From: Candidatus Heimdallarchaeum aukensis
GTDB lineage: Archaea; Asgardarchaeota; Heimdallarchaeia; Heimdallarchaeales; Heimdallarchaeaceae
Reading direction: 5' to 3'
Length of the DNA stretch: 64,000 nt
NCBI GenBank assembly: GCA_021513695.1
Contig: CP084166.1
Span: 384,001 to 448,000, forward strand
Every line of letters starts with the position of its first letter. Position 1 is the stretch's first letter. A program made the translations under genes and the position numbers. Under the pieces are notes generated by a model, which searched no databases, had not been told where the DNA came from, and worked only from the letters and a program-made list of their open reading frames with translations. This document shows, in pieces, positions 15,256 to 41,511 of the stretch.

Positions 15256-15288
15256 TAATAGAATCAAAAATAATTTGAATGAAAGAAG

Positions 15289-20311: not shown

Positions 20312-20542
20312 GTGGTATGTATTAAAATGACTTCAGATTCATCTTGTTATTGTATTGTAAGAATAACTTGGCCTAAATGGATAGTTGCAACTGGACAGAT
20401 AGCTTTAGGTATTGGAATACTCTTATTGATCATTTTTTCGATCTTTTACACAAAGACAAGTTGGGAAAATTTTTCGCTATACGGAATCTACGTGGGAGCA
20501 GGTTTTTTGCTACTTGGGGCACTAATTAGCTATAGTTACTAA
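20312..20542 (+). CDS. small two-TM membrane protein, copy 1 with chimeric 3' end created by the duplication junction
   Basis: Identical to 25743-25979 up to ...LLGALI, then reads into the junction (SYSY*) instead of LSSNDW*. Confidence 0.4.
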   Translation: MVCIKMTSDSSCYCIVRITWPKWIVATGQIALGIGILLLIIFSIFYTKTSWENFSLYGIYVGAGFLLLGALISYSY

Positions 20543-20687
20543 CTCTTTACGCAATATTCCCATGCCTGTGAAGATACACAATGCACCAGTTTTAATTAAA
20601 GAAAATTTGTCTTTCTTTGAAAATCCTTATGATAGTTTGAAAATAAAAAAAGAAAAAAGGATATCTAAAGATATTCCTCTTCTTTAA
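20528..20687 (+). pseudogene. duplicated 3' fragment of herA (last ~53 codons)
   Basis: Exact copy of 15096-15255 (…TNSLRNIPMPVKIHNAPVLIKENLSFFENPYDSLKIKKEKRISKDIPLL*) with no 5' part. Confidence 0.6.
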
Positions 20688-20720
20688 TAATAGAATCAAA
20701 AATAATTTGAATGAAAGAAG

Positions 20721-22004: not shown

Positions 22005-24130
22005 AAATTCTTTGGATACACATGGAGAATTTTAAATGCTACCGCAATGAGAGGATTCCAGAAACAGGTATCCTTCCAAAAGGATTGATTTTTGTAGAGG
22101 GAGAGAATTCGGTAGGAAAAACTTCTTTGTTTGATGCAATATATTACGCTCTTTTTTACGAACCTACAAAGGACAAAGCCATTTTAGGTACAAAAGATAT
22201 GCTAGTAAAAAGAGGAGAAAAAGAGACTATCGTAGAAGTTGCTTTTGAAATAATGAATAAATACTTTGTAGTACAAAAGCAACATGGAATATCAACTCCT
22301 CTAAAAGTAGTTTTACTTCAAATTGATAGAGAGATGGCTGAAAAAGGAGAATTAAAAAATCCCATTAAAATAGCAGAAGGACTAGAGGATGTAAACAAGA
22401 AATTGTTTGAACTATTAAATATCACAAGCGAAAGCGTGTTGAGCACTCTAATAGTAAATCAAGGAGAAGTGCAAAAACTAGCAGAAGCTAAAGGAGCAGA
22501 ACTTAGAGATATAATTTACAAACTTTTTCATTTAGATATAAGAGAAAAGTTGAAACGTGTGATTAATAGAAAAATGGAGATTTTAGATGAAGAATGGGAA
22601 AAATACAAAATTGAGCGCACAACAGAGAATATTCTTGAAGAAATTAAAGAAATAGAGATAGAGAAAGAAACGAAAGAGAAAGAGTTAGTAAAAGCAAAAA
22701 ATGAACTGGAAAAAATAGAAGAGAAAATCTCTCAATATCCTAAACATGAAGATATTCAATCAATAAGCAATATTTTAACTCAAATACAGCAAACCAAAGA
22801 AACTATTTCTAAGCAAGAAAGAATAATTAAACAAAAATCTGAAACTTTAGAAATCAAGGAACTAACACAAGAAGAAATAAAGGATAAAATCTTAGAAATA
22901 GAGAAGATTATTCAGAAAACTAACAATAACATAGAAAATTTAAGAAACAAAAGAGATAAAGTCCAGAAAAAGTTGCATAGTCTCCAAAGAGATCTTGCTG
23001 AAATAAAAGAAAAAATCAAGAAACTAGAAAGTCATGAAGTAGGACATGAAGAAGATTTTACTTGCGAATTATGCGAACAAACGATGCCCTACTCGAAATT
23101 TAAGGAATTAGTAGAGAGTAAAAAACAATCAATTACAAATATTGAATTAGGGATTAAGAAAAGAACTGCAGAAAAAAGAGAAGTAGAGAAACAAATTGAA
23201 AAAGAAAGCAATTATATTAATAAGCTAAAAGAACAAATTTTTTCACTTAATAATGTCAAAGATAGGCTAGATAATCTAGAGAATAACAAGAAAGAATTGG
23301 ATAAAAAACAAAATAATTTAATAACACAACTTAAAAAATTCAAAGTCCAGACAGTTGATCAGCTTTCAAAGAAATATAATGTCGAAAACTTTGAGGAATT
23401 CTTTTCAATTATAAGTCAACTGAAATCTGATAAAGCTAGTCTAAATGCATCAATAAGTCATCTAAATAAAACTATTGAAAAACTAAAACAAAGGAAAAAT
23501 CAATTAGAAAAAGAAATAGACAAAAATAAGGAAAAGGAAGAGAAACAAGAGAGTATTCTTCAAGAACAAGCTGCACTAAAAGATGTAGAAGGTGTAGTTT
23601 CAAGTTTTATAGCTGAGGAGCTAATCTCCAATAGATTGCTTGCAGGAATACAGCAGACAACTAATCCTAATATAAACTTGTTTACGAGAGGAAAATACTC
23701 AGAGATATATCTAGAAGCAACTACAAAGAAAACTTTAAGGTTAAGCGTTTTAGACAAAGAAGAAGAATTCGTAAAAAATCAAGAGTTCCTTTCAGGAGGA
23801 GATAAAGCAGCTATAGGACTAGGATTGAGATTAGGTATAAGCGAATTACTAAAACAAATTAGACCATTCAAAGATTCTCCTCATAATCCTCCAAGGATGG
23901 ATATAATGATACTTGATGAGCCTTTGGGTTCACTTGATAGTGAAAGAAGGAAAAAAGTTCTAGAAGGATTGTTGATACAGAAGAAATTCAGTCAAATATT
24001 TCTGATTACACATACAAATGTTAGAGAAGAACTTCGAGCTCCTTCAATTCGAGTAAGTAGAACAGAAAAAGGTAGCTCTACAGCCTATTACCCTGCTCCA
24101 AGTAAAATAGAGTTAGAATCTGAAGAATGA
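22001..24130 (+). CDS. rad50: Rad50 ABC-type ATPase, copy 2
   Basis: Identical to copy 1 except for a one-Asp deletion (HLDIREK versus HLDDIREK). Confidence 0.8.
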   Translation: MKILWIHMENFKCYRNERIPETGILPKGLIFVEGENSVGKTSLFDAIYYALFYEPTKDKAILGTKDMLVKRGEKETIVEVAFEIMNKYFVVQKQHGISTPLKVVLLQIDREMAEKGELKNPIKIAEGLEDVNKKLFELLNITSESVLSTLIVNQGEVQKLAEAKGAELRDIIYKLFHLDIREKLKRVINRKMEILDEEWEKYKIERTTENILEEIKEIEIEKETKEKELVKAKNELEKIEEKISQYPKHEDIQSISNILTQIQQTKETISKQERIIKQKSETLEIKELTQEEIKDKILEIEKIIQKTNNNIENLRNKRDKVQKKLHSLQRDLAEIKEKIKKLESHEVGHEEDFTCELCEQTMPYSKFKELVESKKQSITNIELGIKKRTAEKREVEKQIEKESNYINKLKEQIFSLNNVKDRLDNLENNKKELDKKQNNLITQLKKFKVQTVDQLSKKYNVENFEEFFSIISQLKSDKASLNASISHLNKTIEKLKQRKNQLEKEIDKNKEKEEKQESILQEQAALKDVEGVVSSFIAEELISNRLLAGIQQTTNPNINLFTRGKYSEIYLEATTKKTLRLSVLDKEEEFVKNQEFLSGGDKAAIGLGLRLGISELLKQIRPFKDSPHNPPRMDIMILDEPLGSLDSERRKKVLEGLLIQKKFSQIFLITHTNVREELRAPSIRVSRTEKGSSTAYYPAPSKIELESEE

Positions 24131-24206
24131 TTCTTTTTTCATTATCTTTATCTTTTTTGAGAATAATATTTATATCTAAAAATGGAAATGTTCTCTAGGG
24201 TTTGAA

Positions 24207-25577
24207 ATGATACCTGGAACACTTAGACCTTTACCAAAAAGATTAGCTAAAGTAAAAACAGAAGCTGAAAGGCTTTTTAGAGCAGTGGACTATGATTACG
24301 AGACTATTAAAGAAATACTAAAATCTAGTAAAAATTTTGAATTTGAAGAAATAAGAAGACAATATATTAATTGTATAAATCATCACATAAGAATAGTTCC
24401 ACTCGTAAAAGAAGCAGATAAATTGTTAGTTAAATATTCAAGAGATCCACTTCTAAAAGAAATGGTTTTCAAACTATTTGATAAGTTGGAAAAATATGAA
24501 TACAGATTGAATGGTGATATTCAACGACTTGATACTATTTTAATGTCGAAAAGAAAAGAATACATCAATAAAACAATTCCACTAGTGAAATCAGAAATAA
24601 GAAGCAAGTTATCTTTCTTAAGAGACCTAGATTTTGAGCAATTACTCGCTGACAGTGAAAAATATTCTGCTATTATTTCAGGCATCGTAGATCGTGTAAA
24701 TATATTAAAAGACGAGTATCAAAAATTAATCGAAAATGCTCTTGAAAGCGCAGTAGAAGCTTATAAAGAGTTAAAAGAAAAACTAGACGAACTTGAAGAT
24801 GAACTAAAAGAGTATGTTCTTATTCTTGCTACTTGTAAGATGGAATTGCTAATTAACGATTCAAAAACTTTGCTTGAAGAAGGAGTTAAAATATTCGAAC
24901 GTTTTGAATTAGAACAAACAACTGAACTCATAGAAGAAGCACAAGAGTACCTAGAAAAAGCAAAACCAACTCTAAAAGAGATGAATGAATTAAAGGTAGA
25001 TATTCCTAAAAAAGCAATGAAAAAGAGCTTTGAAACAAAATTCCGAGAATTAAGAAATAAATTCGAAGAAAATAAATTTACTCTAGATGAATTGATAAAC
25101 AACATCGAAACTAGAAATAGGTTACTATCGACAAATATTGAAAGAATTGATGCATTAAAAGAGCTAGCAAAATCAATGTCGAGTGACATCAAAGAAACAG
25201 GAGAAATATTAAAAATAAAAAGAATGGGTACATTTAAACTATACTTGAAAGAAAATCTTATTCCACACATGGAGTTGCAAGAAAATGGTATAGTAAAAAT
25301 ACCAAAGGCAGAAGAACTCACGGCAACTTTTATAGATGAAATAATCTTGACTCTTGAAGATGTAGATAATAAAAATATAGTTAAGGACTGGTTCAATGCT
25401 TTTAGAGCAACAAAAGTAGGTAAGTGGATATATGAAACTTCAATCAAAATTAAAAATAAAATAGTAGACATAACAAAGAAGATTGTAAAAAAAACTAAAA
25501 AATGGATCCAAGAAATGAAAGAAAAAAGAGAACAGAAAAAATCGCAAGAAAATCAACAAAAAGAAGAGAAGAAATAG
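24207..25577 (+). CDS. coiled-coil protein of unknown function, copy 2
   Basis: Identical to 18776-20146. Confidence 0.55.
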   Translation: MIPGTLRPLPKRLAKVKTEAERLFRAVDYDYETIKEILKSSKNFEFEEIRRQYINCINHHIRIVPLVKEADKLLVKYSRDPLLKEMVFKLFDKLEKYEYRLNGDIQRLDTILMSKRKEYINKTIPLVKSEIRSKLSFLRDLDFEQLLADSEKYSAIISGIVDRVNILKDEYQKLIENALESAVEAYKELKEKLDELEDELKEYVLILATCKMELLINDSKTLLEEGVKIFERFELEQTTELIEEAQEYLEKAKPTLKEMNELKVDIPKKAMKKSFETKFRELRNKFEENKFTLDELINNIETRNRLLSTNIERIDALKELAKSMSSDIKETGEILKIKRMGTFKLYLKENLIPHMELQENGIVKIPKAEELTATFIDEIILTLEDVDNKNIVKDWFNAFRATKVGKWIYETSIKIKNKIVDITKKIVKKTKKWIQEMKEKREQKKSQENQQKEEKK

Positions 25578-25742
25578 CAACATTATGTGATTTTGTGTTT
25601 TTGTGTAAAAATTCTCTATTTTTTTGTTAAATTTATTACTATATAATAATGAATACAAAAAGAAATTAGGTTGAAATTATATCATTCATTGAATTTTTGA
25701 AAAAATTTTTGCCAAAAAAAATAAATATTTAGTTATATATAT

Positions 25743-25979
25743 GTGGTATGTATTAAAATGACTTCAGATTCATCTTGTTATTGTATTGTAAGAATAACTT
25801 GGCCTAAATGGATAGTTGCAACTGGACAGATAGCTTTAGGTATTGGAATACTCTTATTGATCATTTTTTCGATCTTTTACACAAAGACAAGTTGGGAAAA
25901 TTTTTCGCTATACGGAATCTACGTGGGAGCAGGTTTTTTGCTACTTGGGGCACTAATTCTATCAAGTAATGACTGGTAG
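25743..25979 (+). CDS. small two-TM membrane protein (native copy)
   Basis: 78 aa with two hydrophobic helices. Its 3' end lies beyond the duplication boundary. Confidence 0.45.
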   Translation: MVCIKMTSDSSCYCIVRITWPKWIVATGQIALGIGILLLIIFSIFYTKTSWENFSLYGIYVGAGFLLLGALILSSNDW

Positions 25980-26014: not shown

Positions 26015-28051
26015 TTAGAAAAATGCAAACGTGATAAACAAAGGAAGAAGAGTGATTGAAAGTATATTTTGGAGTTTGATTAAAATATGTAGAGAAGGTC
26101 CGGCAGTATCTTTTAGAGGATCACCTACTGTGTCTCCTATTACTGCCGCATCATGCGTTTCTGTTCCTTTACCTCCAAAATGTCCAAGTTCTATGTATTT
26201 CTTAGCGTTATCCCATGCTCCACCAGCGTTAAACATAAACATCGCTAATATTCCAGAAACCACCTTAACTGCAACAAGATAAGCTGCTAGGTACCATACA
26301 CCAACAAGGAAACCCATTATTATTGGTGCCAAAATAGCTATGAAAGTGGGTACAATCATTTCTTTTAAAGCATTTGTTGTGCTTATTCCCACACATCGAG
26401 AATAATCTGCATTGGATTCTCCCTTCAAAATACCAGGGTTTTCTCTAAATTGTCTTCTTACTTCATCAGCCATTTTGAAAGAAGCTCTTCCAACAGCTTT
26501 GATGATTAATGCAGAGAAAAGAAAAGGCATCGTTGCTCCAATGAATATAGCAGCAATACCAATGGGACTTGCAATGTTAACAACAAGATTAGATAAATCA
26601 GAAGCATCCATTCCGAGTAAATCAGCTGCTTGTGTAAGAAAAGCAAACAAGATAACTACAGAAGTTAATATACAAGTGGACATGGCATAACCTTTGGTTA
26701 TTGCTTTAGTTACGTTTCCCACACCATCTAATTCTTCTAAAGCAGAGCCTACTTCATCATTTATACCAGACATTGTAGCTATTCCTTCTGCATTATCTGC
26801 AATTGGCCCAAAAGTATCTGAACTCATTATTATTCCTGTAGAAGCGAGAACACCCATAGTAGCAGCAGCTACTCCGAAAACTCCAAGCATTCCTCCTCCC
26901 ATAATGAAATATGAAGCTACAGAGACTCCAGCAACAACAATTAAGGGAATAACAGGACTTTCAAGACCATAAGCTAAACCTATTATTATGTTTAAAGCTG
27001 GCCCACTCTGAGAACTTTTAGCAATTTCTTTTGTTACTCTCCCTCCAGTAATTGTGTAATAATTTACAAGCATAGAAACTACAAGAGTAAGCACTAAACC
27101 TAAGCCTAAAGTATAAAATAATCGAATATCCTTCATTAACCAGAAAGCAATAGCAAAAAATCCAGCCAATGAAATGAGACCAGAGACCAAAAATGACATG
27201 TAAACATTAGTACTTGTTTTACTTTTTGTTGCACGAACAAAGAAGACTCCTACGATTGAGCTTATTATTCCCACAGATTCAATTAAAAGAGGAAATATAA
27301 GCGCATTGTAGCCATAAACAGGAATAAAAACTAAACCAAGTATCATTGTTGCGATAATATTGTCTGAAAATGATTCAAAGAGATCAGCTCCTCTGCCTGC
27401 GCAATCTCCTACATTATCTCCTACTTGGTCTGCTATAGCTGCTGGATTTCTAGGGTCATCTTCAGGAATCTTGTTTTCGACTTTACCAACGAGATCAGCT
27501 CCAACATCTGCTGCTTTTGTATATATTCCTCCTCCAATCTGAGCAAATAAAGCGGCCAAACTCGCTCCAAAACCATATCCTACAAGAACAGTAGGATCTT
27601 CGCCGAATATCATAAACAAAATACCAATTCCCAGTAAACTTAAACCAACGATTGAAATACCTGTAACAGCTCCTCCTCTAAAAGCTACAACTACAGCTTT
27701 TCGACTATCAGTTCGAGCTTTATTTGCGGTACGAACATTAGCTCTAACAGCAATGCTCATTCCAATATACGCTGCAACAAGAGAAGAAATTGAACCAATA
27801 ACAAAGCTTAAAGCCACTTCCCACTGTAAAACTAACCACAACAGTATAGCAAGCAGTACTATAAACACTCCTATAGTAATGAATTCTCTCTTAAGAAAGG
27901 CTTTGGCCCCTTCGCGTATGAAACCTGCAATTTCTTTCATTCTATCTGTTCCTTCATCTTCTTTCATTACTAGATAAATCAAAAGGAAGACTACTAAAAT
28001 AGCAACAGAGCCAACTATTATACTTATGTACGCCAAATCCACCGTTTTCAC
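26015..28051 (-). CDS. hppA: membrane-bound H+/Na+-translocating pyrophosphatase
   Basis: V-PPase motifs DNVGDCAGRGADLFES and GDTVGDPLKDTAGPSLHILIKL, with about 15 TM helices. Confidence 0.9.
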   Translation of the reverse strand: MKTVDLAYISIIVGSVAILVVFLLIYLVMKEDEGTDRMKEIAGFIREGAKAFLKREFITIGVFIVLLAILLWLVLQWEVALSFVIGSISSLVAAYIGMSIAVRANVRTANKARTDSRKAVVVAFRGGAVTGISIVGLSLLGIGILFMIFGEDPTVLVGYGFGASLAALFAQIGGGIYTKAADVGADLVGKVENKIPEDDPRNPAAIADQVGDNVGDCAGRGADLFESFSDNIIATMILGLVFIPVYGYNALIFPLLIESVGIISSIVGVFFVRATKSKTSTNVYMSFLVSGLISLAGFFAIAFWLMKDIRLFYTLGLGLVLTLVVSMLVNYYTITGGRVTKEIAKSSQSGPALNIIIGLAYGLESPVIPLIVVAGVSVASYFIMGGGMLGVFGVAAATMGVLASTGIIMSSDTFGPIADNAEGIATMSGINDEVGSALEELDGVGNVTKAITKGYAMSTCILTSVVILFAFLTQAADLLGMDASDLSNLVVNIASPIGIAAIFIGATMPFLFSALIIKAVGRASFKMADEVRRQFRENPGILKGESNADYSRCVGISTTNALKEMIVPTFIAILAPIIMGFLVGVWYLAAYLVAVKVVSGILAMFMFNAGGAWDNAKKYIELGHFGGKGTETHDAAVIGDTVGDPLKDTAGPSLHILIKLQNILSITLLPLFITFAFF

Positions 28052-28350
28052 CTTAATATTTTCTTTTCAATATTTTACAAAAAACCAAAAAACATTACTT
28101 TCTTTTAAATGTATTGCTAATTTTTGTACAGAAATGTTAATTAATTAACTATTATAATAGTTGTCTATGATGCTTTATAGACATAAACCGTTAATAAACG
28201 TTAAAAGCTAATAAGAATTGAAAAACGATAATAAAAATAGAATAATACATATTGTTATTAAAACAATTTTAAGGTTAATAAAACAAAGATTGTGTTATAG
28301 AGCAAAGAAAAAAGTTAAATGTAATTATATGAAATAAATTTGTTAATAGT

Positions 28351-29121
28351 GTGGATAAAATGGTTGAAAATAACTTTTTAAACAATCTAAATAGCTTTTT
28401 GAAAGAGTTTAGTTTGGAAAGTTCTAAGATTATGGAGAATATTAATTTCTTCTTTTTATTCTTCAATGATCTAAATGTAGAGATAGAAAAAAGCAATTTT
28501 TCTGAAATTGATAAAAAACTTGTTTCTTATTCTTTTGAAGCTTTTGATTTAACCTTAAAAAAAACCTATAGATTTATTCAAGATAACTGTTTGTATATTT
28601 TTGAAAAAAAACAAGATTACAATAATGATGTGAAAAAACTAGACATGTATGAAACAATCGTAAAAGAGATTTATTATGCCTTAGGAGATTTTTATTTAGA
28701 GAAATATGCTGGGTTAGTTTCATTTATTAAGGATAATGATATTAAAATAAATCTCAAATTATACTCTAAATTTAGGACTATTTTTCTCAGATTACTAAAT
28801 CAAATCCAATCTTTGAAACAATATATAATCAAAGATGAAGAACTAAACAAATTAACTAATTGGAGAAAAAGTAAATTACAAGAATTGATTCACTCTTCAA
28901 CTTCAATTAATCTTGAAAAATTATCTGAACAACTACATTTTGATAACTCTATTGAACTTGAGCAGTGGATAATACAGATTTCTTCAGACATTTTTCTTAT
29001 TGATGATAATATTCTCAAAATATCAAGGTCTGTTACTGATGACGAAATAGCTGAATCTATAGATTCTTTGCTAAACGAGTTTAAGAAATATGAAACATTA
29101 GGTTTAGGAAAAAAAATCTGA
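28351..29121 (+). CDS. hypothetical protein, member of a local family with a shared C-terminal module
   Basis: C-terminus ...DDEIAESIDSLLNEFKKYETLGLGKKI* parallels ...KKEIAEAIDSLLKDYEKWVKQGVGKKT* in the 40621-41511 product. Confidence 0.5.
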   Translation: MDKMVENNFLNNLNSFLKEFSLESSKIMENINFFFLFFNDLNVEIEKSNFSEIDKKLVSYSFEAFDLTLKKTYRFIQDNCLYIFEKKQDYNNDVKKLDMYETIVKEIYYALGDFYLEKYAGLVSFIKDNDIKINLKLYSKFRTIFLRLLNQIQSLKQYIIKDEELNKLTNWRKSKLQELIHSSTSINLEKLSEQLHFDNSIELEQWIIQISSDIFLIDDNILKISRSVTDDEIAESIDSLLNEFKKYETLGLGKKI

Positions 29122-29130
29122 GGAGTTAAA

Positions 29131-29931
29131 ATGGATTTAGTAGAAATTAATTTCATAGTAGACGATAGGAATGAAATTATAACTGTAGAATCATCAGTTG
29201 AAGAATTAGATTTATCGAATAGAAACATCAAGGACATCAATTTAGCAGGGGTAGAAAGACTTCCTTTTCTCAAAAAGATTGATCTTTCAAACAATAGTAT
29301 TGAAAAAATATATGAAAAACCTTTGAAATATTGTCCAAGCTTACAAATAGTTAACTTGTCAAATAATGAATTAGATGAAATAGATCTATCTTTCTGTTAT
29401 TATTTACCTGACTTAAGAGTTTTAGATTTATCAAAAAACAAATTAAGAAAAGTAAACCTTTATCACCTTCTTTTGTGCAACTTTCTAAATACATTAGATT
29501 TACAAGAAAATAATTTCGAAGAAATTGATTTAACTCCACTTATTTCTTTGCCTTCTCTTAATCATCTTTCACTCTCTGAAAAAGAAAAGAAAGTGATGAA
29601 GTTAGAAGGAATGCTATCTTCTTATTTAAAATCCAACTCTCCTATAAAAACCCAACTAGTTGAACTAAAAAAGCTATATACACAGAATAATAGGATGCTG
29701 CTAATTAAACAAATAGTCAAAACCTACAAAAAAATAAGGAAATCTAAAATAGCTCAGTTTCTTTCTTTTGAAAGTGAAATTGAGTTTGAGAATTGGTTAC
29801 TTACTGAATATGGAGATATAAAAGCTTTTGAAATGACTGAAGAGTATCTTATTATTCACAAAGAAGCAGTAAATGAGTTAGACGAGATGCTCTCAAAATT
29901 AGAGAAATCGTTTGAATCTCTACGTAGATGA
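29131..29931 (+). CDS. leucine-rich-repeat protein carrying the same C-terminal module
   Basis: Five or six LxxLxLxxNxL repeats ([50 protein letters not shown] and [13 protein letters not shown]). GGAG SD 7 nt upstream and a 9-bp gap to the preceding gene. C-terminal ~70 aa align with the module of the other two family members. Confidence 0.7.
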
Positions 29932-30369
29932 CAATCTATTGTTTTCTTTCACTTTTTTTTCAAATTTTAAAGACGTTGAATTAATACAATAGCGTAAACC
30001 TGTTTTATCTTTAGGCCCATCGTCAAAAACGTGTCCTAAATGACCTCCACAATTACTACAGACTATTTCTGTTCTAATCATTCCGTGAGAAGTATCTAAT
30101 TGTTCTTTTACGGCGTTTGGATCGACTGGTTCAAAAAAACTAGGCCATCCACAACCTGATTTGAATTTTGCAGATGATCTAAATAATTGTTGACCGCAAC
30201 CAGCACAACTGTAAATTCCACTTTCAAAATGGTCGTAATATTCTCCAGAAAAAGGTCTCTCTGTTCCCTTTAACCTTAAGATGTAATATTGGTCTTTGGT
30301 CAGCTTTTTTTTCCAATATTCATCTGTTGAATTTCCATTTTTAAATTTATTCACATTATAAAGTAGCAA
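29920..30369 (-). CDS. msrB: peptide-methionine (R)-S-oxide reductase
   Basis: Two CxxC zinc motifs (CAGCGQQLF and [12 protein letters not shown]) and the catalytic RYCINS. Confidence 0.9.
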
Positions 30370-30408
30370 TCGAGCTTTAAATCAATATTGATTTCACAAA
30401 TTTAAAAA

Positions 30409-30930
30409 ATGAATAAAAAGTTTAAACAAATAATAGGTGACAATATGCACTTTGAAATTGGTGACAATATGCACTTTGAAATTAAACAAATTGGAATAAT
30501 TCATTCTCCTTTTAAAAAAATGGAAGAAGCTCCTATTCAACCTCGTTTTTCAGATAAGCCTGGCAAAATAGAAGTTTTTCCTGAATACAAAGAAGGATTA
30601 AAAGATCTTGAAGGTTTTTCTCATATAATCTTGCTTTATTACTTCCATCTAGTAAAAGAAGAACAGTTAACTATTCGACCTTTTATGGAGCCAGATAAAC
30701 CAAAAGGTGTTTTTGCAACGCGGTACAATAAAAGACCCAATAAAATAGGTTTATCCATTTGCGAAATTGATAGAATTGAGGATAATATAATTTATGTTAA
30801 ATATATAGACGTGCTGGATAATACTCCTCTAATTGATATTAAACCTCTTGTTCCTTTATTTGATTTCAGAAATATTGAAAACATAAAAGTAGGTTGGTTA
30901 TCTAATAAAAAAGAAAGACCTAAAGAGTAA
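30409..30930 (+). CDS. trmO: TsaA/TrmO-family tRNA methyltransferase
   Basis: IGIIHSPFK...PIQPRF...GFSHIILLYYFH...TIRP...RPNKIGLS, characteristic of the YaeB/TsaA family. The true start is probably ATG 30469, inside the duplicated RBS unit. Confidence 0.8.
   Translation: MNKKFKQIIGDNMHFEIGDNMHFEIKQIGIIHSPFKKMEEAPIQPRFSDKPGKIEVFPEYKEGLKDLEGFSHIILLYYFHLVKEEQLTIRPFMEPDKPKGVFATRYNKRPNKIGLSICEIDRIEDNIIYVKYIDVLDNTPLIDIKPLVPLFDFRNIENIKVGWLSNKKERPKE
30436..30483 (+). repeat. perfect 24-bp tandem duplication (x2) spanning RBS plus start codon
   Basis: ggtgacaatatgcactttgaaatt occurs twice back to back. This produces GDNMHFEIGDNMHFEI in the long ORF. Confidence 0.85.
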
Positions 30931-31051
30931 TATTTCTTTTCCAAATTTCAGCTCTTTTGTACAATGTTTTAAACAGACAAAAATAATTAATTTCAATTTT
31001 TGAAATATGTGTTTCAAGATAGCTATTTATTATATTTCTTAAGGTATTAAA

Positions 31052-31483
31052 TTGAGAAAAATGGCTACACTTGAAGCAATGAAAATAATTCCTGACAGAA
31101 CTGTTGAAGAGTTAGAAAAAATTGATGTTGAAATTGGTAAGATTTTAACTAAAATACTTAATGAAGATGGAAATAATTTAGATTTTATAGAAAAACAAAT
31201 TTATGCTATTCTTCTAATCTCAAAAGCTGGATTACCAATGTATTCAAACGTAAATGCTGATTTTAAAGTAAATGAACTTTTGCTGTCAGGATTGCTAGGG
31301 GCTTTACAAATAGTAGGAAATTCAATTTTCAGAGACGATACAGTTATATGTTCGATAAATTATAAAGGTTTCACGATTTTATTTGAAGAAATGTCGTTTG
31401 GAAGTTTGGTTTTAATTGTTTCAGAAAATAATCAATTAACAAGAAAAATAATTAAGATAATTAAAGAAACTTTAACTGAATAA
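31052..31483 (+). CDS. Roadblock/LC7 (MglB-like) domain protein (tentative)
   Basis: About 140 aa. The segment AILLISKAGLPMYSNV...LLGALQIVG...GSLVLIVSE matches the alpha-beta-beta-alpha-beta pattern of Roadblock/LC7 domains. Assignment is by pattern only. Confidence 0.35.
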   Translation: MRKMATLEAMKIIPDRTVEELEKIDVEIGKILTKILNEDGNNLDFIEKQIYAILLISKAGLPMYSNVNADFKVNELLLSGLLGALQIVGNSIFRDDTVICSINYKGFTILFEEMSFGSLVLIVSENNQLTRKIIKIIKETLTE

Positions 31484-31487
31484 TGTC

Positions 31488-31580
31488 TGCTTCGATAATT
31501 CAATTAATCTGATAACATTATTGGGGTTATTTCTTACAAGGATAACATCTGCACTTTCTATTGCAACATCAGTTCCTGCC
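31488..31580 (+). pseudogene. about 93-bp remnant of a copB-like P-type ATPase 3' region
   Basis: About 93% identical to 32492-32583 inside copB (first 31 bp identical). Lies opposite in strand to copB and directly after the stop of the 31052-31483 gene. Confidence 0.5.
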
Positions 31581-31621
31581 TTAAGCACAATTTTTGAAAA
31601 AATTAAAGAGTTTGCAAAACA

Positions 31622-31981
31622 TTAATTGAGAAAAGAATCCCAAAAAATATTAAGTTTACAAAACTCAAAAAAAAAACCAATAAAGAATATTGACCAAGCT
31701 ATATTAGTTCTTTTTTTATCTATTTTTGATTTTCGTGATTTATCTTTTTGAAATGTGAATTCTATTAATGGATAAGCTTCTATTAACATTCCTGAGACCA
31801 TAATAATTATACTTATTACAAGAATAAGTATATATACTGTATACTTGATAGTCCAGGATAATTCTATAAGAATGTTATCAATAAATGATGCTAGTAATAA
31901 AGATCCAAAGATTCCTATTATGGAAAGAAAAGATTGAATCTGTAGATTTTTTACATCAAAGTTAATATTTGTTTCATTCAT
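31622..31981 (-). CDS. small membrane protein (hypothetical)
   Basis: 119 aa with three hydrophobic helices. Confidence 0.35.
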   Translation of the reverse strand: MNETNINFDVKNLQIQSFLSIIGIFGSLLLASFIDNILIELSWTIKYTVYILILVISIIIMVSGMLIEAYPLIEFTFQKDKSRKSKIDKKRTNIAWSIFFIGFFFEFCKLNIFWDSFLN

Positions 31982-32250
31982 TAATACTACCTACCTTATT
32001 TGTTACAAACCTATTGCTATATAGAATAGCCTCTTATAAGTGTTGGTCTAGCGAAAATGCAGATGATAAGGAAAATATCTATTGACATAATAATGTGTGC
32101 TGTCAGGCCCACGCTTTCATATGTTCTTAATGATTACTAGAAGTTTTCAAATAGTAGTGAATTTAATTTTTAGCGATAATATAGTCATTTATTCAAATTA
32201 TATGACATCACTATCCTATTTTTTTTTAAAAAAAAGAATAGAGTAAAAAG

Positions 32251-34464
32251 TTACGATTTATCTTTTTGTTCTTTCTTTGCAGATTTTTTATTGTTTTTTG
32301 GAGATATATCATATTTTCTTAAAGTTTGGGAATTGATAGCGACGATTACTGTACTCAAAGACATCAAAATTGCGCCTATAGCAGGGTTTATTATTACACC
32401 TACACTTGCTAGAACTCCTGCAGCTAAAGGAATAGCGATTATATTATATCCTGCTGCCCACCATAAATTTTGAATCATTTTCTTGTATGTTTGCTTCGAT
32501 AATTCAATTAATCTGATAACATCATTTGGGTTATTTCTTACAAGGATAATATCTGCGCTTTCTATTGCAACATCAGTTCCTGCCCCTACTGCAATTCCTA
32601 CATCAGCAGTAACTAATGCAGGAGCATCATTAATTCCGTCTCCGACCATAGCGACTTTGTATCCTTCCTCTTTTAATTTTGTAATTTTATCAGCTTTCTC
32701 ATGTGGAAGAACTTCTGCAAAATAGTCATCCATTTCTAATTCTTTTGCTACCCATTTTGCTACTTCTTCTGCATCGCCTGTAAGCATGTATGTTCTTATT
32801 CCTAAAGATTTTAACTTCTCAATAGCAATTCTTGAATCTTCTCTTATTTTATCTGCTAGAGCAAATGCGCCAGCAAGTTTGTCATCAATTATTGTAAAGA
32901 TTACAGTTTTTCCTTGTTGTTGCACTTGTTTTATCTTCTCATCTTCTATTTCTATTTTCAACTCGTCAAGTAAGTTTGGGCTACCAACATAGACTGTTTT
33001 TCCATTTATTTTACCTTTTACACCTTTACCTGGCATTACAGTAAAATCAATAGTTGAAGGGATCTTTATTTTCTTCTCTTTTGCATAATCTACTATAGCT
33101 TTTGCAATTATATGCTCAGAGTTAATCTCTAACGCTGCAGTTAACTCCAATAACTCTTCTTCAGGAATGTACGAGATAACATCAGTTACTCCAAAGTTTC
33201 CTTCAGTCAAAGTTCCTGTTTTATCAAAAACTATAGCATCTATGTTTCGAACGTTTTCAAATCCAGTTCTGTCTCTTATAAGTACTCCACTTTTAGCAGT
33301 AATAGAAGTAGATAAAGCAACAACTAGAGGAATAGCTAAACCTAACGCATGGGGGCAAGCAATAACTAATACTGTTACAGCTCTCTCTAAAGCGAAATCA
33401 GGAAAACCAAGAAGGAACCATGTAGTATAAGTTATGATTCCTGCGATAAGTGCTACATAAAATAATAATGCTGCTGCACGATTAGCTAAATCTTGTGTTC
33501 TTGATTTACTCATTTGTGCTTTTCTTACTAAGTCTATTACTTGAGCAAGATAATTTTCTTCACCAGTTTTAGTTATTTTTACATGTAAAATTCCTTCTGA
33601 ATTTATAGATCCACCAATAACCATGTCATCCACAGTTTTGGATACAGGCATTGATTCTCCAGTCAAAAAAGCTTCATTTACATATGAAGAACCGTCTATA
33701 ACTACACCATCTGAAGGAATTTTTTCTCCAGGTCTAACAAGTGTAACATCATTGATTTTAAGCTCGGAAACGGAGACATCAATGATTTCTCCATCCTTGA
33801 TTAAGTGAGCAGTAGTAGGCATAATCTTTACTAATTCCTCTAATGCTCTCGAAGCTCCCATAATACTTTTTGCTTCCACCCAGTGACCTAGTAGCATAAC
33901 ATCGATCAATGTAGCAAGCTCCCAAAAGAAATCTACTCCTTCAATGAAAAACACAGTAGCAGCCGAATAAAAGAAAGCTACAGATATTGCCATTGCAATA
34001 AGTGTCATCATACCAGGAAGTTTTTTCTTGATTTCGTTAAATAAGCCTTTTAGAAATGGCCAACCACCATAAAAATAGATAAGTGATGAGATTGCAAGAA
34101 CTAATTCTCTTTGAAAATTAAAGGTAATCTCAAAGTTTAACCATAGCTGAATTGTTTCAGATAGAAGTAAAACTGGAATGGTTAAAATTAAAGAGACAAA
34201 AAATCTTTTCTTGAAGTCAGAAATGTGAGCAGAATGGTCATGAGATTTGTGGTCCTGATGATCTCCATGTTTCATTTTAGTTCCTGTAGATCCATGATCT
34301 TTGTGTTCTTGATGATTTTGATGCGTAGTATGTGCTTCTGCAGAAACATGACTTTTATGATCCTTATGATCTTTATGTTTCATATGAGATTCTGAAGAAT
34401 CATGTTTTTTGTGATTTTGGTTATCATGATCTTGATTTTTATTTCCTTTGTTCATTTTTTTCAC
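32251..34464 (-). CDS. copB: copper-translocating P1B-type ATPase, His-rich N-terminus, CPH motif
   Basis: N-terminal His-rich metal-binding stretch (HKDHKDHKSH...), CPH in TM6 (ACPHALGLA), phosphorylation site DKTGTLT and hinge GDGINDAP. Confidence 0.9.
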   Translation of the reverse strand: MKKMNKGNKNQDHDNQNHKKHDSSESHMKHKDHKDHKSHVSAEAHTTHQNHQEHKDHGSTGTKMKHGDHQDHKSHDHSAHISDFKKRFFVSLILTIPVLLLSETIQLWLNFEITFNFQRELVLAISSLIYFYGGWPFLKGLFNEIKKKLPGMMTLIAMAISVAFFYSAATVFFIEGVDFFWELATLIDVMLLGHWVEAKSIMGASRALEELVKIMPTTAHLIKDGEIIDVSVSELKINDVTLVRPGEKIPSDGVVIDGSSYVNEAFLTGESMPVSKTVDDMVIGGSINSEGILHVKITKTGEENYLAQVIDLVRKAQMSKSRTQDLANRAAALLFYVALIAGIITYTTWFLLGFPDFALERAVTVLVIACPHALGLAIPLVVALSTSITAKSGVLIRDRTGFENVRNIDAIVFDKTGTLTEGNFGVTDVISYIPEEELLELTAALEINSEHIIAKAIVDYAKEKKIKIPSTIDFTVMPGKGVKGKINGKTVYVGSPNLLDELKIEIEDEKIKQVQQQGKTVIFTIIDDKLAGAFALADKIREDSRIAIEKLKSLGIRTYMLTGDAEEVAKWVAKELEMDDYFAEVLPHEKADKITKLKEEGYKVAMVGDGINDAPALVTADVGIAVGAGTDVAIESADIILVRNNPNDVIRLIELSKQTYKKMIQNLWWAAGYNIIAIPLAAGVLASVGVIINPAIGAILMSLSTVIVAINSQTLRKYDISPKNNKKSAKKEQKDKS

Positions 34465-34655
34465 TAAAGAGTTTTTATTATTTTTAAGATATTAAAGCTA
34501 TTGGTTAAACAATTTTTGAAATAATAATATCTTTCTCTTTAAGTGATATTGTTTTTCTACTCTAATTTGAGTAAAATCTCCTATTTTAGTTGTAATTCTT
34601 TCATTATTTTTTTAAGTCAAGAGATAAACCAATTTAAAAATTTAAATAATGTTAG

Positions 34656-37600
34656 TTAGTTCATGCTTTCTTTTAGATAAACCCAAGTATAACCCATTTG
34701 TTTTTGGACTATTTCTTCTGGTTTTCCTTCTGAGATTATGTACCCTCCTAGCTCTCCTCCTTCTAGACCTAAATCTATAACATAGTCTGCCTGTTTAATT
34801 AAATTCATTTCGTGATCAATTAGAACCACACTGTGTCCTTTATTTGCTAATCTATGAAGAATTTCAATAAGTTTTTCTAAATCAAAAAAGTGTAATCCTT
34901 GAGAAGGTTCATCTAGGATGTAAATACTATTTCCATAGGTTCTTTTAGATAGTTCTCTTACAATCTTTAATCTTTCAGCTTCTCCACCACTTATTGTTGT
35001 TGTTGGTTGTCCCATTTTCAAATAACCTAAACCTGCTTCAACAGCTAATTTTAATGGAGCACTTATTTTTTCTAGATCCCTAAATAACTCATATGCTTCT
35101 TCAATAGTCATCTCAAGAATATCAGAGATAGATTTTTGTTTGTACTTTACAGCTAGAACTTTTTTGTTATACCTTTTCCCCTTACAAATAGGACAAGTTA
35201 ACCATACATCAGATAAGAAAAGTAATTCTACCTTCTTTTGCCCTAATCCTTTACATTCTGGGCATTGTCCTTTTTTTACATTAAAACTAAAATGAGCAGA
35301 GCTCATTCCTCTGTTTCTTGATTCAGGTAGTTCAGCATAAAACTTTCTTATCTCGTCAAAAACTCCAAGATAAGTTGCTGGAGTTGAACGAACAGATTTA
35401 CTCATTGCAGATTGATCTACAGCAATAACTTTTTTGATATCTTCAAAACCTTTAATTTCTTTATGTTTTCCTGCTTCTATCTTCTTTTTAGAAATTTTTT
35501 TCTCTAAAGCTTTTTGTAAAGTATCTATAACCAAAGAAGATTTACCCGCACCTGATACTCCAGAAACAGCAGTAATAATTCCCTTTCCAAACTTTGCTGT
35601 AATATTTTTAAGATTATTTTCTTGTGCTCCTACTAAAGTTATATTTTCTGAAGTTTTTCTTCTTTTAGTAGGCGTTTTTATTTTTCTCTTGCCATAAATA
35701 TAGCTACCAGTAAGAGAAGATTCGCTTTTAAGAACCTCATTGGTTGAACCAAAGTTAATTATTTCTCCTCCTTCTTCTCCTCCCCTTGGTCCTAACTCAA
35801 TTATATAATCAGACTCTTTAATTATTGTATCGTCATGTTCTACTACTATTACGTGATTGCCATTTTCTTTTAATTTCTTCATGGTGTCTAATAGCCTGTT
35901 AATGTCTCTTGGATGTAAACCAATAGTGGGTTCGTCTAAGCAATAAGTTACCCCTATTAATCCACTTCCTATTTGAGAAGCTAAGCGTATTCTTTGTGCT
36001 TCTCCATTGGATAATGTACTTGCTCTTCGATCAAGAGTTAAATATTCTAACCCTACATCTACTAAATATTGAGCTCTTTTCTTTAATTCGGAAAGGATTC
36101 GCTCTGCTATTTTCGACCTTCTTTTATCTAATATTATATTATTCAGAAATACAAGAAAGTCTTTAACTGAATATTTTGTCAAATCTGTAATTGATTTGTT
36201 ATTAATTGTAATAGCTAAAACTTCTGGTTTAAGTTTTTCTCCCTTACAGTCGGGGCAAAGATACTCTGAATAATATTGGTTCATTTTTTCTTTATATTTA
36301 AGTGACCAAGTCGAATCTGTTTCAGATTTCATCCAATCATCCCAACGAGGAATTAATCCTTCCCAAGGTTTTTCTCTAATATACTCTGATACAGATTTAC
36401 GACTTTCTTGACGATAAACTATTTCTACTATTTCGCCATCTGAACCATAAAATAAAGCATGTAGTTGTTGAGGAGTAAAATCTTTTAGAGGAGTAGAGAG
36501 AGTGAAACCAAAGTGTTTTCCTACTGATTCTAACATACTTCGTCTCCAAGAGTTAGGATTACTCATTCTTTGTGCAGTATAAGGACCAATTGCTCCTTCA
36601 ATTATTGATTTATTCCAATCTGTAACTATCTTTCTAATATCAAATTTTCTGATCATTCCCAATCCTGTACAAGTTGGGCAAGCTCCTGAATAGTGATTAA
36701 AACTAAATAACCTTGGGTGAATCTCTTCTGGGACTTCAATTCCATGCTCTAAACATTCAGCATTGAATGAATACCTTTTTCCTTTTTTATCTGTAGAATA
36801 GACTTCTATTCTCCCTTTTCCAAGTTCTCTAGCTATTTCTAATGAATCAACAAATCTCGTATCTTCAACTTTTGATAAATCTATTCTATCAATCACAACT
36901 GAAAGTGTTTTAACATTATCAACACTAAACTCTTCATCTAAATGTAATAGTTTCTCATTTAGTAAAATCCTTGTATATCCTTCTTTCTTTAGTTCTTTTA
37001 CAATTTTAGATATATCTACTTGCTCTCCATTTAATACTGAAGCAGCAAGGTATATTTTCTTATCTTTGAACTCTTTTCTAATCAATTTTGCTATTTCTGT
37101 TTCTGTCCTTTGTTTTAATTCAATAGAACATTTAGGACAATGAGGAATACCTACTTTTGCAAAAAGAAGACGAAGATAATCATAAATTTCAGTAGTTGTG
37201 GCAACAGTGGAACGAGGATTATGTGAAATTGAATGTTGATCTATTGCAATTGAAGGAGTTAAGCCTACTATTTCTTCTACTTCTGTCCTTTCTGCCCGAT
37301 TTAGAAACTGTCTAGCATAACTGCTCAAACTTTCAATAAATCTTCTTTGCCCTTCAGCAAATAGTGTATCAATAACTAAACTACTTTTTCCACTACCAGA
37401 AACTCCAGTAACAACAACAAGATTATTTTTTGGAATAGTAAGATCAAGATTTTTTAGATTGTTCTTTTTTGCTCCTTTTACATAAAGAAAACTGCTTGGA
37501 TCTAATTCTTTATCTGATGTGGAAATAGAATTTTTACTTACTGTTTGCTCTTTTTCTAATTCTCTCTTTTCTCCTTCTAAAACCTTTTTTAGAGCTTGAC

Positions 37601-40620: not shown

Positions 40621-41511
40621 TTGTTGGTTATCTTTATGTTCATCTTTAAAAGAGTAAAAAGAAGAATTATTCTGAAAAGATTTTTTGTTACGCAAAACCA
40701 ACTATTAAGTGAATTTTTTGAAGAAACAGAGAAAGCATTGGGGAAAAAAATTACAATAATAGAATTTAATGAAGCCTTTAATCCAATAATAGAAAAATTA
40801 AATCAGATTATAGAAAACCATTCCAAAAGTAAAATCCTTAAAAAAACTATGAAAAAAAGATGGGCTAGGATTCTGTGGAGAAAGAAAGGAAAGGCTAAAG
40901 AAATTGAAAAGAGTCTTGTTAATATAACAGCAATTTTGGACAAATTAGATTTTTCAATTATTAATAATGATTTAGAAGAAATTGAATATTTATTAGAAGA
41001 TATAATAGAGATCGATTATGCATATGAAAAATTAAATAAATTAAAAAACGCAATAAATAGCTTCGATATTTTGTTAGAAAAAATGCTTTCAGTATTCAAC
41101 TTTTATGCAATACTAATTTCAAACGAGTCAATAAAAAATTTTGACAATTTAATAGTTAGAATTGAGAAAGATAGTTTAAGATGGAAAGCAGAAATAGATA
41201 CTTACGAAATATTAAAAGAAGCTATAGAAGAAAGAGCAGAACGAATAAACAGGCTTAAAGTATTTAATGATATGCTTGTTAAGAAAGAAAGTGTAAGCAT
41301 TACTGAAATGATGGACAAATTGGATTTTGAAAATAGAGAAAATCTAGAAAAATGGTTATTAGAAAATGTTCCTGCTAATACAATACTAATTAGCAGAGAG
41401 ATAATACAATTTAATAAAAATGTAAGTAAAAAAGAAATAGCTGAAGCAATAGATTCTTTGTTAAAAGATTACGAAAAATGGGTTAAGCAAGGAGTAGGAA
41501 AAAAAACCTAA
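40621..41511 (+). CDS. hypothetical protein, member of the local family with a shared C-terminal module
   Basis: C-terminal FENRENLEKWLLENV...KKEIAEAIDSLLKDYEKWVKQGVGKKT* aligns with the 28351 and 29131 products. Confidence 0.5.
   Translation: MLVIFMFIFKRVKRRIILKRFFVTQNQLLSEFFEETEKALGKKITIIEFNEAFNPIIEKLNQIIENHSKSKILKKTMKKRWARILWRKKGKAKEIEKSLVNITAILDKLDFSIINNDLEEIEYLLEDIIEIDYAYEKLNKLKNAINSFDILLEKMLSVFNFYAILISNESIKNFDNLIVRIEKDSLRWKAEIDTYEILKEAIEERAERINRLKVFNDMLVKKESVSITEMMDKLDFENRENLEKWLLENVPANTILISREIIQFNKNVSKKEIAEAIDSLLKDYEKWVKQGVGKKT

Follow-up and report, generated by a model that had tools for sequence, protein, structure and literature searches.

Three proteins (A, B and C) encoded in a 64,000-nucleotide stretch of the Candidatus Heimdallarchaeum aukensis genome, further referred to as the window, carry a common C-terminal module which most resembles a divergent PCI-type winged helix. 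Genes A and B represent an operon type that occurs repeatedly: its first gene encodes a small helical protein whose module is tailed, its second a leucine-rich repeat (LRR) protein whose module is tail-less. By analogy to PCI subunits, we lean towards a PCI-like function in protein-protein assembly, with A, B and C being members of a multi-copy Heimdallarchaeial family.

The open reading frames of all three genes are present as delimited in the preliminary description, and for A and C a start codon slightly further downstream is listed as well (Table 1). The product of A is identical to K9W45_01595 (Ca. Heimdallarchaeum aukensis). As described earlier, A and B are adjacent with a gap of 9 nt: the TGA stop codon of A (29119-29121) is directly followed by GGAG, after which B starts with the ATG at 29131. 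The gap is likewise 9 nt in Ca. H. endolithica, and a comparison with this species indicates purifying selection on both genes, with dN/dS values of 0.13 for A and 0.11 for B. Two antisense ORFs (28275-28496 and 28890-29294) overlap A and B, which are both under purifying selection. At the gathering thresholds, no Rfam match was obtained for region 27500-42500. The LRRs of B are supported by the Pfam models LRR_4 (61.6 bits) and LRR_8 (57.2 bits) over residues 22-148 (cut-off 27), in agreement with the earlier count of five or six repeats; Pfam gives neither a GTPase nor a kinase, as was also stated before.

Table 1 Features of genes A, B and C, with positions in the window
Feature	Position	Strand	Description
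Gene A	28360..29121	+	253 aa, start ATG 28360 (database version); small helical protein, tailed module
Gene A, longer ORF	28351-29121	+	256 aa, start GTG 28351
A winged-helix subdomain	28873..29022	+	Residues 175-224 (256-aa numbering); H1, b1, H2, H3, b2, b3
A C-terminal amphipathic acidic helix	29038..29100	+	Residues 230-250; conserved I-D-x-L-L-x-x-F-x-x-[WFY]-E
A basic tail GLGKKI	29101..29118	+	Extreme C-terminus; predicted disordered
GGAG	29122..29125	+	Shine-Dalgarno-like; inside the 9-nt A/B gap
Gene B	29131..29931	+	266 aa; LRR protein, tail-less C-terminal module
B leucine-rich repeats	29197..29580	+	Residues 23-150; 24-residue repeats, five complete plus one partial (counted by eye)
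B module	29704..29922	+	Residues 192-264; winged helix and helix; family profile positions 2-74 of 83
Gene C	40636..41511	+	291 aa, probable start ATG 40636
Gene C, longer ORF	40621-41511	+	296 aa, start TTG 40621
C module	41290..41508	+	Residues 224-296; winged helix, helix, tail GVGKKT (41491-41508)

The preliminary description proposed a common C-terminal module for the three proteins. For A and C this is directly visible, with their C-termini aligning over 72 residues at 35% identity (BLASTP, E=7e-13) and both ending in G[LV]GKK[IT]. For B, pairwise BLASTP is significant neither against A (best E=0.22) nor against C (E=0.023, in an alignment ending where the module begins), and a profile built from the two sequences of A and C alone fails (E=1.2). 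However, a family profile of 45 modules finds residues 192-264 of B with E=2.3e-9 when all 431 ORFs from a six-frame translation of the window are searched; the runner-up has an E-value of 0.23. This profile sets A, B and C apart from the other ORFs by more than seven orders of magnitude in E-value. Since the match covers residues 192-264 only, B has the winged helix and the helix without the basic tail. Its chain stops two residues past the module in ...KSFESLRR, and the G[LV]GKK ending claimed for all three proteins thus holds for A and C only.

An exhaustive search of 1.84 billion proteins resulted in 44 cluster representatives, and the module is located C-terminally in 41 of them. All representatives bearing an organism name are Heimdallarchaeial, which is in line with the lineage specificity suggested earlier; the family is multi-copy and, as far as the named sequences indicate, restricted to Heimdallarchaeia. 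Fusion partners of the module are LRR, WD40 and TPR/HEAT repeats as well as type-I membrane proteins that expose beta-helix/TSP3 or beta-propeller arrays on the outside of the cell, and in many members the module faces the cytoplasm from a membrane protein. Protein C is a soluble paralog of the entire cytoplasmic domain of the beta-helix/TSP3 transmembrane proteins: its N-terminal 215 residues match the relatives P0006 and P0011 with an E-value of about 3e-10 (phmmer), and its basic, juxtamembrane-like N-terminus MFIFKRVKRRIILKRFF is homologous to the stretch following the transmembrane segment in these two proteins. For C, first-iteration phmmer results alone were used, as a C-seeded jackhmmer search extended its alignments over almost the full length of nearly all sequences, even across the LRRs of B, which was judged to be drift with the module as its anchor. 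The module is not represented among the NCBIfam models, full-length A or C as a query in a protein homology search retrieves close orthologs only, and a locus scan with B alone retrieves the H. endolithica ortholog only. No relatives beyond orthologs were detected for the N-terminal region of A, nor any homology (phmmer, profile) to the small tailed partners P0008, P0009 and P0010, suggesting that these N-terminal regions are either fast-evolving or unrelated.

The module consists of an acidic PCI-like winged helix with a preceding helix of PCI-like pattern (L-x-x-I-x-x-Y-x-x-I-S-L-x-x-L-A-x-L-L-x-F), an acidic amphipathic helix of about 20 residues and, in most members, the G-x-G-K-K tail at the extreme C-terminus. 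In 41 of the 44 representatives, the G-K core is separated from the end of the chain by 0-3 residues. Among the 45 aligned modules, conserved columns include W (44/45), F (42/45), I (45/45), L (44/45), G (41/45) and K (45/45). With a mean net charge of -4.0 and a range from -10 to 0, the winged helix is positive in no member; the mean values are -1.6 for H3, the recognition-helix position, and -0.9 for the wing. The C-terminal helix has a mean of -3.0 and the tail of +1.8. A eukaryote-like dilysine (KKXX/KXKXX) retrieval signal is not supported for the tail, as the positions suit some members only and no coat machinery is evident, and the resemblance of the helix to an ESCRT-III MIM-like helix is loose.

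Next, the fold was considered. An AF2 model of the module shows a winged helix and a helix with a pLDDT of 79, bearing out the earlier guess of a winged-helix-like domain, and full-length C was modelled with a pLDDT of 87.4 and a pTM of 0.70. In both models the tail is predicted to be disordered and the C-terminal helix has a lower pLDDT than the winged helix, which would fit a helix that is ordered only in a complex. In structure, the winged-helix subdomain, H1-b1-H2-H3-b2-b3, comes closest to its equivalents in PCI subunits. A PCI domain is defined by an N-terminal TPR-like/HAM helical-repeat subdomain packed on a winged helix (Scheel and Hofmann 2005, PMC1274264). With the N-terminal helices of C, generic helical bundles (CorA, MukF) are matched as strongly as PCI proteins, and therefore a canonical TPR-like PCI helical subdomain is not evident.

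On the sequence level, A (14.5 bits, E 0.041) and C (12.7 bits, E 0.16) fall short of the gathering cut-off of 22 bits for Pfam PCI (PF01399), and B has no match to this model. Among the relatives, 14 out of 42 match at E<0.01, with P0038 (32.0 bits), P0037 (28.0 bits) and P0013 (27.2 bits) exceeding the cut-off; CSN8_PSD8_EIF3K and Paf67 are also among their Pfam matches. A profile search against PDB sequences gave an Rpn12-like PCI protein as best match (E 0.073), and with a second profile only eIF3a and PSMD12 were found at E<1; all PDB sequence matches have E>0.05 and all Foldseek matches E>0.1. Four routes, covering both sequence and structure, agree on PCI as the best match, and the module, which had not been recognised in the preliminary description, most resembles a divergent PCI-type winged helix.

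The arrangement of A and B is repeated elsewhere. A small helical protein with a tailed module, followed after 9-15 bp by an LRR protein with a tail-less module, is found at five independent loci and one ortholog. These unit loci are A-B itself, L002 (ortholog), L003, L005 (where the gap is 61 bp) and L008; at L007, the contig end cuts the downstream LRR gene, leaving its C-terminus outside view. The paralog of B at L003 (309 aa) scores 81.8 bits with LRR_8, and that at L008 (307 aa) is recorded as an LRR protein. The adjacency of A and B is therefore no local accident but one instance of a recurring two-gene unit, and the tail-less ending is conserved throughout an LRR subfamily. The products of the adjacent pair probably form a protein complex. 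Clusters of four module-bearing surface proteins are located at L004 and L005.

A partner-binding role, as guessed before, is the most plausible one for the module. By analogy to PCI complexes, the modules would oligomerise through side-by-side contacts of their winged helices and bundling of their C-terminal helices, such that A and B may form an asymmetric heterodimer or a higher oligomer with one basic tail per pair. This tail may touch a partner module on its acidic side, or a different partner altogether. On a larger scale, common sub-membrane assemblies would arise in which the family links cytosolic repeat scaffolds with adhesin-like surface proteins at their cytoplasmic ends. The strict G-K at the extreme C-terminus is foreign to PCI proteins and is left unexplained by such an assembly.

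The PCI domain is usually taken as a hallmark of eukaryotic multi-subunit complexes (the proteasome lid, the COP9 signalosome, eIF3 and TREX-2), and Heimdallarchaeia are usually placed closest to eukaryotes among the archaea. If the module indeed serves assembly, it would offer a concrete example, accessible to experiment, of scaffolds being assembled from modules in the eukaryotic manner in the archaea most closely related to eukaryotes, and possibly an outgroup from which the PCI fold could be traced to its origin. The new point here is the recurrent tailed/tail-less operon of which A-B is one copy. Its two-gene units (about 250 and 270 aa, apparently soluble) suit co-expression and structural work. 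If the PCI similarity is convergent or generic to winged helices, a lineage-specific domain family remains that is useful for annotating 'hypothetical proteins'. A bolder version, speculative and unlikely in our view, is an expanded Heimdallarchaeial PCI-type system to which the PCI scaffold shared by the proteasome lid, CSN and eIF3 would be related, or from which it would descend. In such a system, heteromeric contacts between the winged helices and helices of tailed and tail-less modules would couple adhesin- or receptor-like surface proteins to cytosolic LRR, WD40 and TPR scaffolds. The result would be a network of a primitive kind, for transmembrane signalling or cortical scaffolding, in which the C-terminal G-x-G-K-K serves as a separate recognition code.

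Other explanations start from the tail. It could be a linear docking or sorting motif read by one common receptor, e.g. a trafficking, ESCRT-like, proteolytic or lysine-modifying machine, with the winged helix merely presenting it and the tail-less LRR partners riding on the tailed ones. We consider this unlikely. The near-terminal position of the G-K core in 41 of 44 representatives and the conservation of its residues (K 45/45, G 41/45) fit a motif of this kind, as do the predicted disorder of the tail and the module-bearing cluster of L005, which adjoins an EAP30/ESCRT-II-like gene and a Band7 gene. In addition, archaeal ESCRT loci are reported to encode membrane kinases that end in PCI-like winged helices (Makarova et al. 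2024, PMC10936438). However, no candidate receptor was found, the ESCRT neighbourhood occurs at one of nine loci only, and in the window there are no ESCRT, ubiquitin or proteasome genes near A-B or C. The winged helix and the helix are conserved as well as the tail, and therefore are more than a scaffold for a motif. Peripheral anchoring, with the basic tail and the amphipathic helix lying on the acidic cytoplasmic face of the membrane, would make these proteins membrane-proximal scaffolds without specific module-module contacts. The mean charge of the tail (+1.8), the many membrane proteins with a cytoplasmic module and the juxtamembrane-like N-terminus kept by C would suit this, but two to three lysines beside an acidic helix (-3) and winged helix (-4) form a poor anchor, which would moreover be superfluous for the integral membrane members. 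As the invariant glycines also suggest specific recognition over bulk electrostatics, anchoring seems quite improbable.

A further reading is nucleic-acid binding, by which A, B and C would be transcriptional or RNA regulators. The tail is rich in lysine, and some eukaryotic PCI proteins (eIF3, TREX-2) contact RNA. Against this, the winged helix is acidic throughout the family, with negative averages for the recognition-helix position and the wing, and many members are membrane-tethered behind large extracellular domains. A, B and C have no Pfam DNA-binding HTH match at E<=1, and none is present among the 25 commonest families of the 42 relatives. A role of this type is thus very improbable, and a DNA-binding wHTH regulator of the MarR/ArsR/TrmB type was rejected on the acidic H3 and wing and the lack of an HTH profile match. 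Finally, the module might be an artefact of low-complexity, K/E-rich and AT-biased coding sequence, given a genome of about 30% G+C and coiled-coil-like flanks into which jackhmmer alignments drift. This is effectively refuted by the specific hydrophobic and aromatic positions that are conserved (such as W, F, I and L), the profile separation from other window ORFs, the confident and compact predicted fold and the purifying selection on both A and B.

Compared to known PCI proteins (PF01399, CSN8/PSMD8/eIF3k, Paf67/eIF3l), the proteins that support an assembly function by analogy, the module has the same Y-x-x-I-S-L-x-x-L-A-x-L-L helix, winged helix and C-terminal helix, is located C-terminally on proteins with helical N-terminal parts and occurs in several paralogs per genome. 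In PCI complexes, the C-terminal helix joins a helical bundle, and the winged helices contact each other laterally to give a horseshoe of several subunits together with MPN proteins. Here, the winged helix is followed by a predicted helix of about 20 residues. Unlike PCI, the host is archaeal, A and C remain under the Pfam threshold, and LRR, WD40 and beta-helix/TSP3 transmembrane proteins are fusion partners. We know of no such fusions of eukaryotic PCI and, to our knowledge, the extreme C-terminal G-x-G-K-K tail is absent from PCI proteins.

DDRGK1/UFBP1 of the UFM1 E3 complex has an N-terminal membrane anchor, a long helical region and a C-terminal PCI-like winged helix for assembly with UFL1, a layout which matches that of many family members. 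As far as we know, DDRGK1 lacks a G-x-G-K-K tail and a large extracellular domain. Pfam DDRGK is not among the families reported for the scanned members, and no UFM1 or UFL1 gene context was seen. Asgard archaea have abundant LRR and small-GTPase proteins, and B shares canonical LRRs with Roco (LRR-Roc-COR) proteins. Unlike these, B and its paralogs are without Roc GTPase, COR and kinase: Roc, Ras and COR gave no Pfam match in B at E<=1, and the sole COR-B match, in one paralog of B (E=0.018, 15.3 bits versus a cut-off of 27 bits), is not significant. The winged helices of ESCRT-II (EAP30/Vps22/Vps25/Vps36), also present in Asgard archaea, are used purely for protein-protein assembly. The module shares the winged-helix fold with them, and one EAP30 gene lies beside the L005 cluster; membership of the EAP30 family itself (PF04157, tandem winged helices) was rejected.

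According to Makarova et al. (2024, PMC10936438), archaeal ESCRT loci encode membrane Ser/Thr kinases with C-terminal PCI-like winged helices, and Asgard ESCRT-associated proteins contain 'HTH/PCI' domains. Oligomerisation or contacts between winged helices were proposed for these domains, and neither the tail motif nor the LRR operon is part of that report. Compared by description, both sets comprise PCI-like winged helices that end multidomain proteins of archaea associated with the membrane, the partners being kinases and Ig-like repeats in the former and LRRs, beta-helix/TSP3 arrays and propellers in the family described here.

All three ORFs of the preliminary description, here called A, B and C, are present in the ORF listing of the window, which has a G+C content of ~30% and belongs to the circular, 3.08-Mb genome of the Asgard archaeon Candidatus Heimdallarchaeum aukensis. 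Protein A is 100% identical to K9W45_01595 of this organism. The database version of A, and probably that of C, starts slightly downstream of the start proposed earlier, while the 9-nt gap between A and B with its GGAG was found as described. B and the convergent msrB (-) overlap by 12 nt at their 3' ends, therefore leaving no space for a separate terminator between the two. The neighbours of A, B and C are unrelated housekeeping genes (H+-pyrophosphatase, MsrB, TrmO, P-type ATPase, response regulator and DinB), and no Rfam family was detected at gathering thresholds in window 27500-42500. A and B are both kept in Ca. H. endolithica, where neither the 9-nt gap nor the flanking genes differ. 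Based on this conservation and dN/dS values of 0.13 (A) and 0.11 (B), both are real genes.

Positions, in window coordinates, of the genes and sequence elements discussed in the text
Feature	Position	Strand	Remark
HerA-like gene	13375-15255		
5.43-kb duplication, copy 1	15096-20527		
Mre11-like phosphoesterase, copy 1	15289-16059, 15971-16570		two ORFs
Rad50/SMC-like ATPase, copy 1	16567-18699		
456-aa ORF, copy 1	18776-20146		
5.43-kb duplication, copy 2	20528-25958		
Mre11-like phosphoesterase, copy 2	20721-22004		intact
Rad50/SMC-like ATPase, copy 2	22001-24130		
456-aa ORF, copy 2	24207-25577		
A start (ATG), database version	28360	+	253 aa
A stop (TGA)	29119-29121	+	
GGAG between A and B	29122-29125	+	
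B start (ATG)	29131	+	
B/msrB 3' overlap	29920-29931	+/-	12 nt
143-aa ORF	31052-31483	+	
1929-aa ORF	34656-40445	-	
C start (ATG), database version	40636		probable start; 291 aa
C N-terminal stretch	40636-40690		
Surface-type protein	47395-49251	-	SBBP, TSP3
DUF7948 protein	49336-50067	-	
273-aa protein	50505-51326	+	

According to the preliminary description, the three proteins have a C-terminal module in common that ends in G[LV]GKK. For A and C this holds, with a 72-residue alignment of their C-termini at 35% identity (BLASTP, E=7e-13) and both ending in G[LV]GKK[IT]. B ends in ...KSFESLRR, shows no significant pairwise similarity to A or C and is missed by a two-sequence A+C profile (E=1.2). 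When all six-frame ORFs of the window (431) are searched with a profile of 45 modules, residues 192-264 of B match at E=2.3e-9 and the next best match has E=0.23; therefore, B carries the module but without its last ~8 residues. B has five full leucine-rich repeats (LRRs) and a partial sixth, and no other domain by Pfam, in agreement with the earlier count of five or six repeats and no GTPase or kinase. The observation is thus confirmed in part, the feature being genuine and more structured than first seen.

An exhaustive HMMER search with the A+C module against 1.84 billion cluster representatives identified 44 proteins with the module at E<1e-3, in 41 of which it lies at the very C-terminus. 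The most highly conserved positions are a W in helix 3 (44/45 modules), an F (42/45), and the I (45/45) and L (44/45) of a C-terminal helix with the pattern I-D-x-L-L-x-x-F-x-x-[WFY]-E, followed by the G (41/45) and K (45/45) of the tail. N-terminal partners are a signal peptide with a right-handed beta-helix (NosD-like), bacterial TSP3 repeats and one TM segment; LVIVD or FG-GAP beta-propellers with a TM segment; LRR, WD40 or TPR/HEAT repeats; or coiled coils. Stand-alone modules of ~75-150 aa occur as well, and a few proteins (P0012, P0024 and P0029) have two winged-helix copies. Past the TM segment, the membrane proteins have a stretch rich in K and R, so that by the positive-inside rule the module is probably cytoplasmic. 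All members with an organism name in a source are Heimdallarchaeial: Ca. H. aukensis, Ca. H. endolithica, 'Heimdallarchaeaceae archaeon' and 'Heimdallarchaeota archaeon GF308', which contributes at least four. As many members sit on metagenome contigs, restriction to Heimdallarchaeia is provisional.

An AlphaFold2 model built on a 40-sequence alignment (pLDDT 79) gives the order H-b-H-H-b-b, a 21-residue helix and a disordered tail. The module is thus predicted to be a winged helix with a C-terminal helix, bearing out the earlier guess of a winged-helix-like fold; the interpretation offered with it, a partner-binding or winged-helix-like domain specific to the lineage, is supported in part. 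Independent routes point to a winged helix of the PCI flavour, the domain of the proteasome lid, COP9 signalosome (CSN) and eIF3. A and C match Pfam PCI (PF01399) below threshold only; among their relatives 14 of 42 match it, three above the 22-bit cut-off (32.0, 28.0 and 27.2 bits), and the PCI-clan families CSN8/PSMD8/eIF3k and Paf67/eIF3l are also matched. Against all PDB sequences the matches are weak (E 0.05-0.6): an Rpn12-like 'PCI domain-containing protein' was the best for a first profile, and eIF3a and PSMD12/Rpn5 were the only chains at E<1 for a second. Foldseek returned the same ordering with non-significant E-values. The mean net charge is -4.0 for the winged helix, never positive in any member, -3.0 for the C-terminal helix and +1.8 for the basic tail. 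The acidic winged helix and helix, together with membrane tethering, argue against nucleic-acid binding.

Over its full length, C is homologous to the region that P0006 and P0011, two beta-helix/TSP3 membrane proteins, have on the cytoplasmic side (phmmer E ~3e-10). Its N-terminus starts with MFIFKRVKRRIILKRFF, which aligns with the end of their TM segment and with the basic juxtamembrane stretch behind it. This stretch is included in the homology. C thus looks like a copy of a receptor tail that is soluble or attached peripherally, and the alignment suggests an origin from a beta-helix/TSP3-type membrane protein minus its extracellular and TM parts.

The A-B arrangement recurs: it was seen at six loci, the window and five contigs encoding other family members. 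In all five loci with a visible C-terminus, the LRR partner ends at or just past the conserved helix aromatic, without G-x-G-K-K. The genomic pairing of tailed and tail-less forms is fixed.

Loci in which a module gene is paired with an LRR gene
Locus	Upstream product	LRR partner	Gap	LRR C-terminus
Window	A, GLGKKI	B	9 nt	...FESLRR
L002 (H. endolithica ortholog)	A ortholog	B ortholog	9 nt	...KSFESL
L003 (second H. aukensis pair)	P0049 (K9W45_02740), 281 aa, GLGKKI	309 aa	9 nt	...QSFDGLNR
L005 (another MAG)	288 aa with TM segment, GEGKKK	228 aa	61 nt	...DQFQEW
L008	P0010, 283 aa, GIGKKI	307 aa	13 nt	...RQFDEF
L007	P0009, 269 aa	cut by contig end	15 nt	outside contig

The two modules of the L005 pair are far more alike than those of A and B, and in L008 a third module gene (P0012) is convergent to the pair. 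The LRR fusions P0035 and P0022 have the tail and are solitary where the context is visible, and a further locus (L009) holds a pair of two tailed helical proteins.

Large surface proteins with the module also cluster. In Ca. H. endolithica (CP084167.1 611845-624956; L004, locus 10001-23112), four proteins of 849-1155 aa in a row all have the tailed module; NosD/beta-helix/TSP3 Pfam matches are on record for three, and none for the 1155-aa one. This locus is bordered by an integrase/transposase fragment on one side and a small Arf/Ras/Roc-type GTPase on the opposite one. In L005 (1-15703 of Ga0366832_1003043, JGI metagenome 3300033148), four consecutive large surface proteins each end in the tailed module, followed by EAP30 (ESCRT-II Vps22/36-like), Band7/SPFH and, on the opposite strand, the LRR pair. 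This EAP30 gene is the sole ESCRT link seen in the loci examined. The window itself encodes a surface-type protein with an SBBP beta-propeller and TSP3 repeats, of the extracellular type of many family members, adjoining a DUF7948 protein; the family profile finds no module in it.

The family presents a conserved acidic PCI-like winged helix, a helix and a basic tail, C-terminal and predicted to be cytoplasmic, with many paralogs per genome. The PCI subunits of the lid, CSN and eIF3 pack their winged helices laterally, and a bundle of their C-terminal helices drives assembly (see also Scheel and Hofmann 2005, PMC1274264, and the overview by Makarova et al. 2024, PMC10936438). By analogy, the module would mediate hetero- or homo-oligomerisation, A and B would form an asymmetric complex with one tail, and the family would link surface proteins with cytosolic repeat scaffolds. 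The C-terminal helix is less confident than the winged helix in the models of both the module and full-length C, which would fit a helix requiring a partner. However, the PCI analogy leaves the invariant extreme C-terminal G-K unaccounted for, and this leaves room for another explanation, unlikely in our view, in which the tail serves some reader as a linear motif for docking, sorting or modification.

Makarova et al. (2024, PMC10936438) described C-terminal PCI-like wH domains on membrane kinases encoded in archaeal ESCRT loci, as well as 'HTH/PCI' domains in some Asgard proteins associated with ESCRT. This was the only paper found in full-text literature on the PCI domain and Asgard or archaea; for Asgard with COP9 or the proteasome lid, nothing relevant was among the matches listed, and the family goes unmentioned in the Heimdallarchaeum genome paper (Wu et al. 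2022, PMC8813620). Therefore, it is regarded as a lineage-restricted, hitherto undescribed variant within a known domain type and not as a new fold.

Elsewhere in the window, immediately downstream of a HerA-like gene, a 5.43-kb segment is duplicated in tandem almost perfectly (99.9% identity, 2 indels). Each copy encodes an Mre11-like phosphoesterase, a Rad50/SMC-like ATPase and a 456-aa ORF, the Mre11 gene being split into two ORFs in copy 1 and intact in copy 2; the duplication could be a genuine recent event with a frameshift or an assembly artefact. The single 1929-aa ORF contains four GVSGSGKSSL-type Walker A motifs and, on visual inspection, resembles a head-to-tail fusion of two complete UvrA proteins. 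The 143-aa ORF matches the first longin domain of FUZ/MON1/HPS1 below threshold (E=8e-4, 20 vs 26.1-bit cut-off) and may be an Asgard longin/roadblock-like protein. Finally, the 273-aa protein has an N-terminal ArsR-like winged-helix/DUF7347 region and also matches the Yip1 membrane domain below threshold (E=5.6e-4, 20.3 vs 28.6-bit cut-off), which would make an unusual combination if the Yip1 match is genuine.
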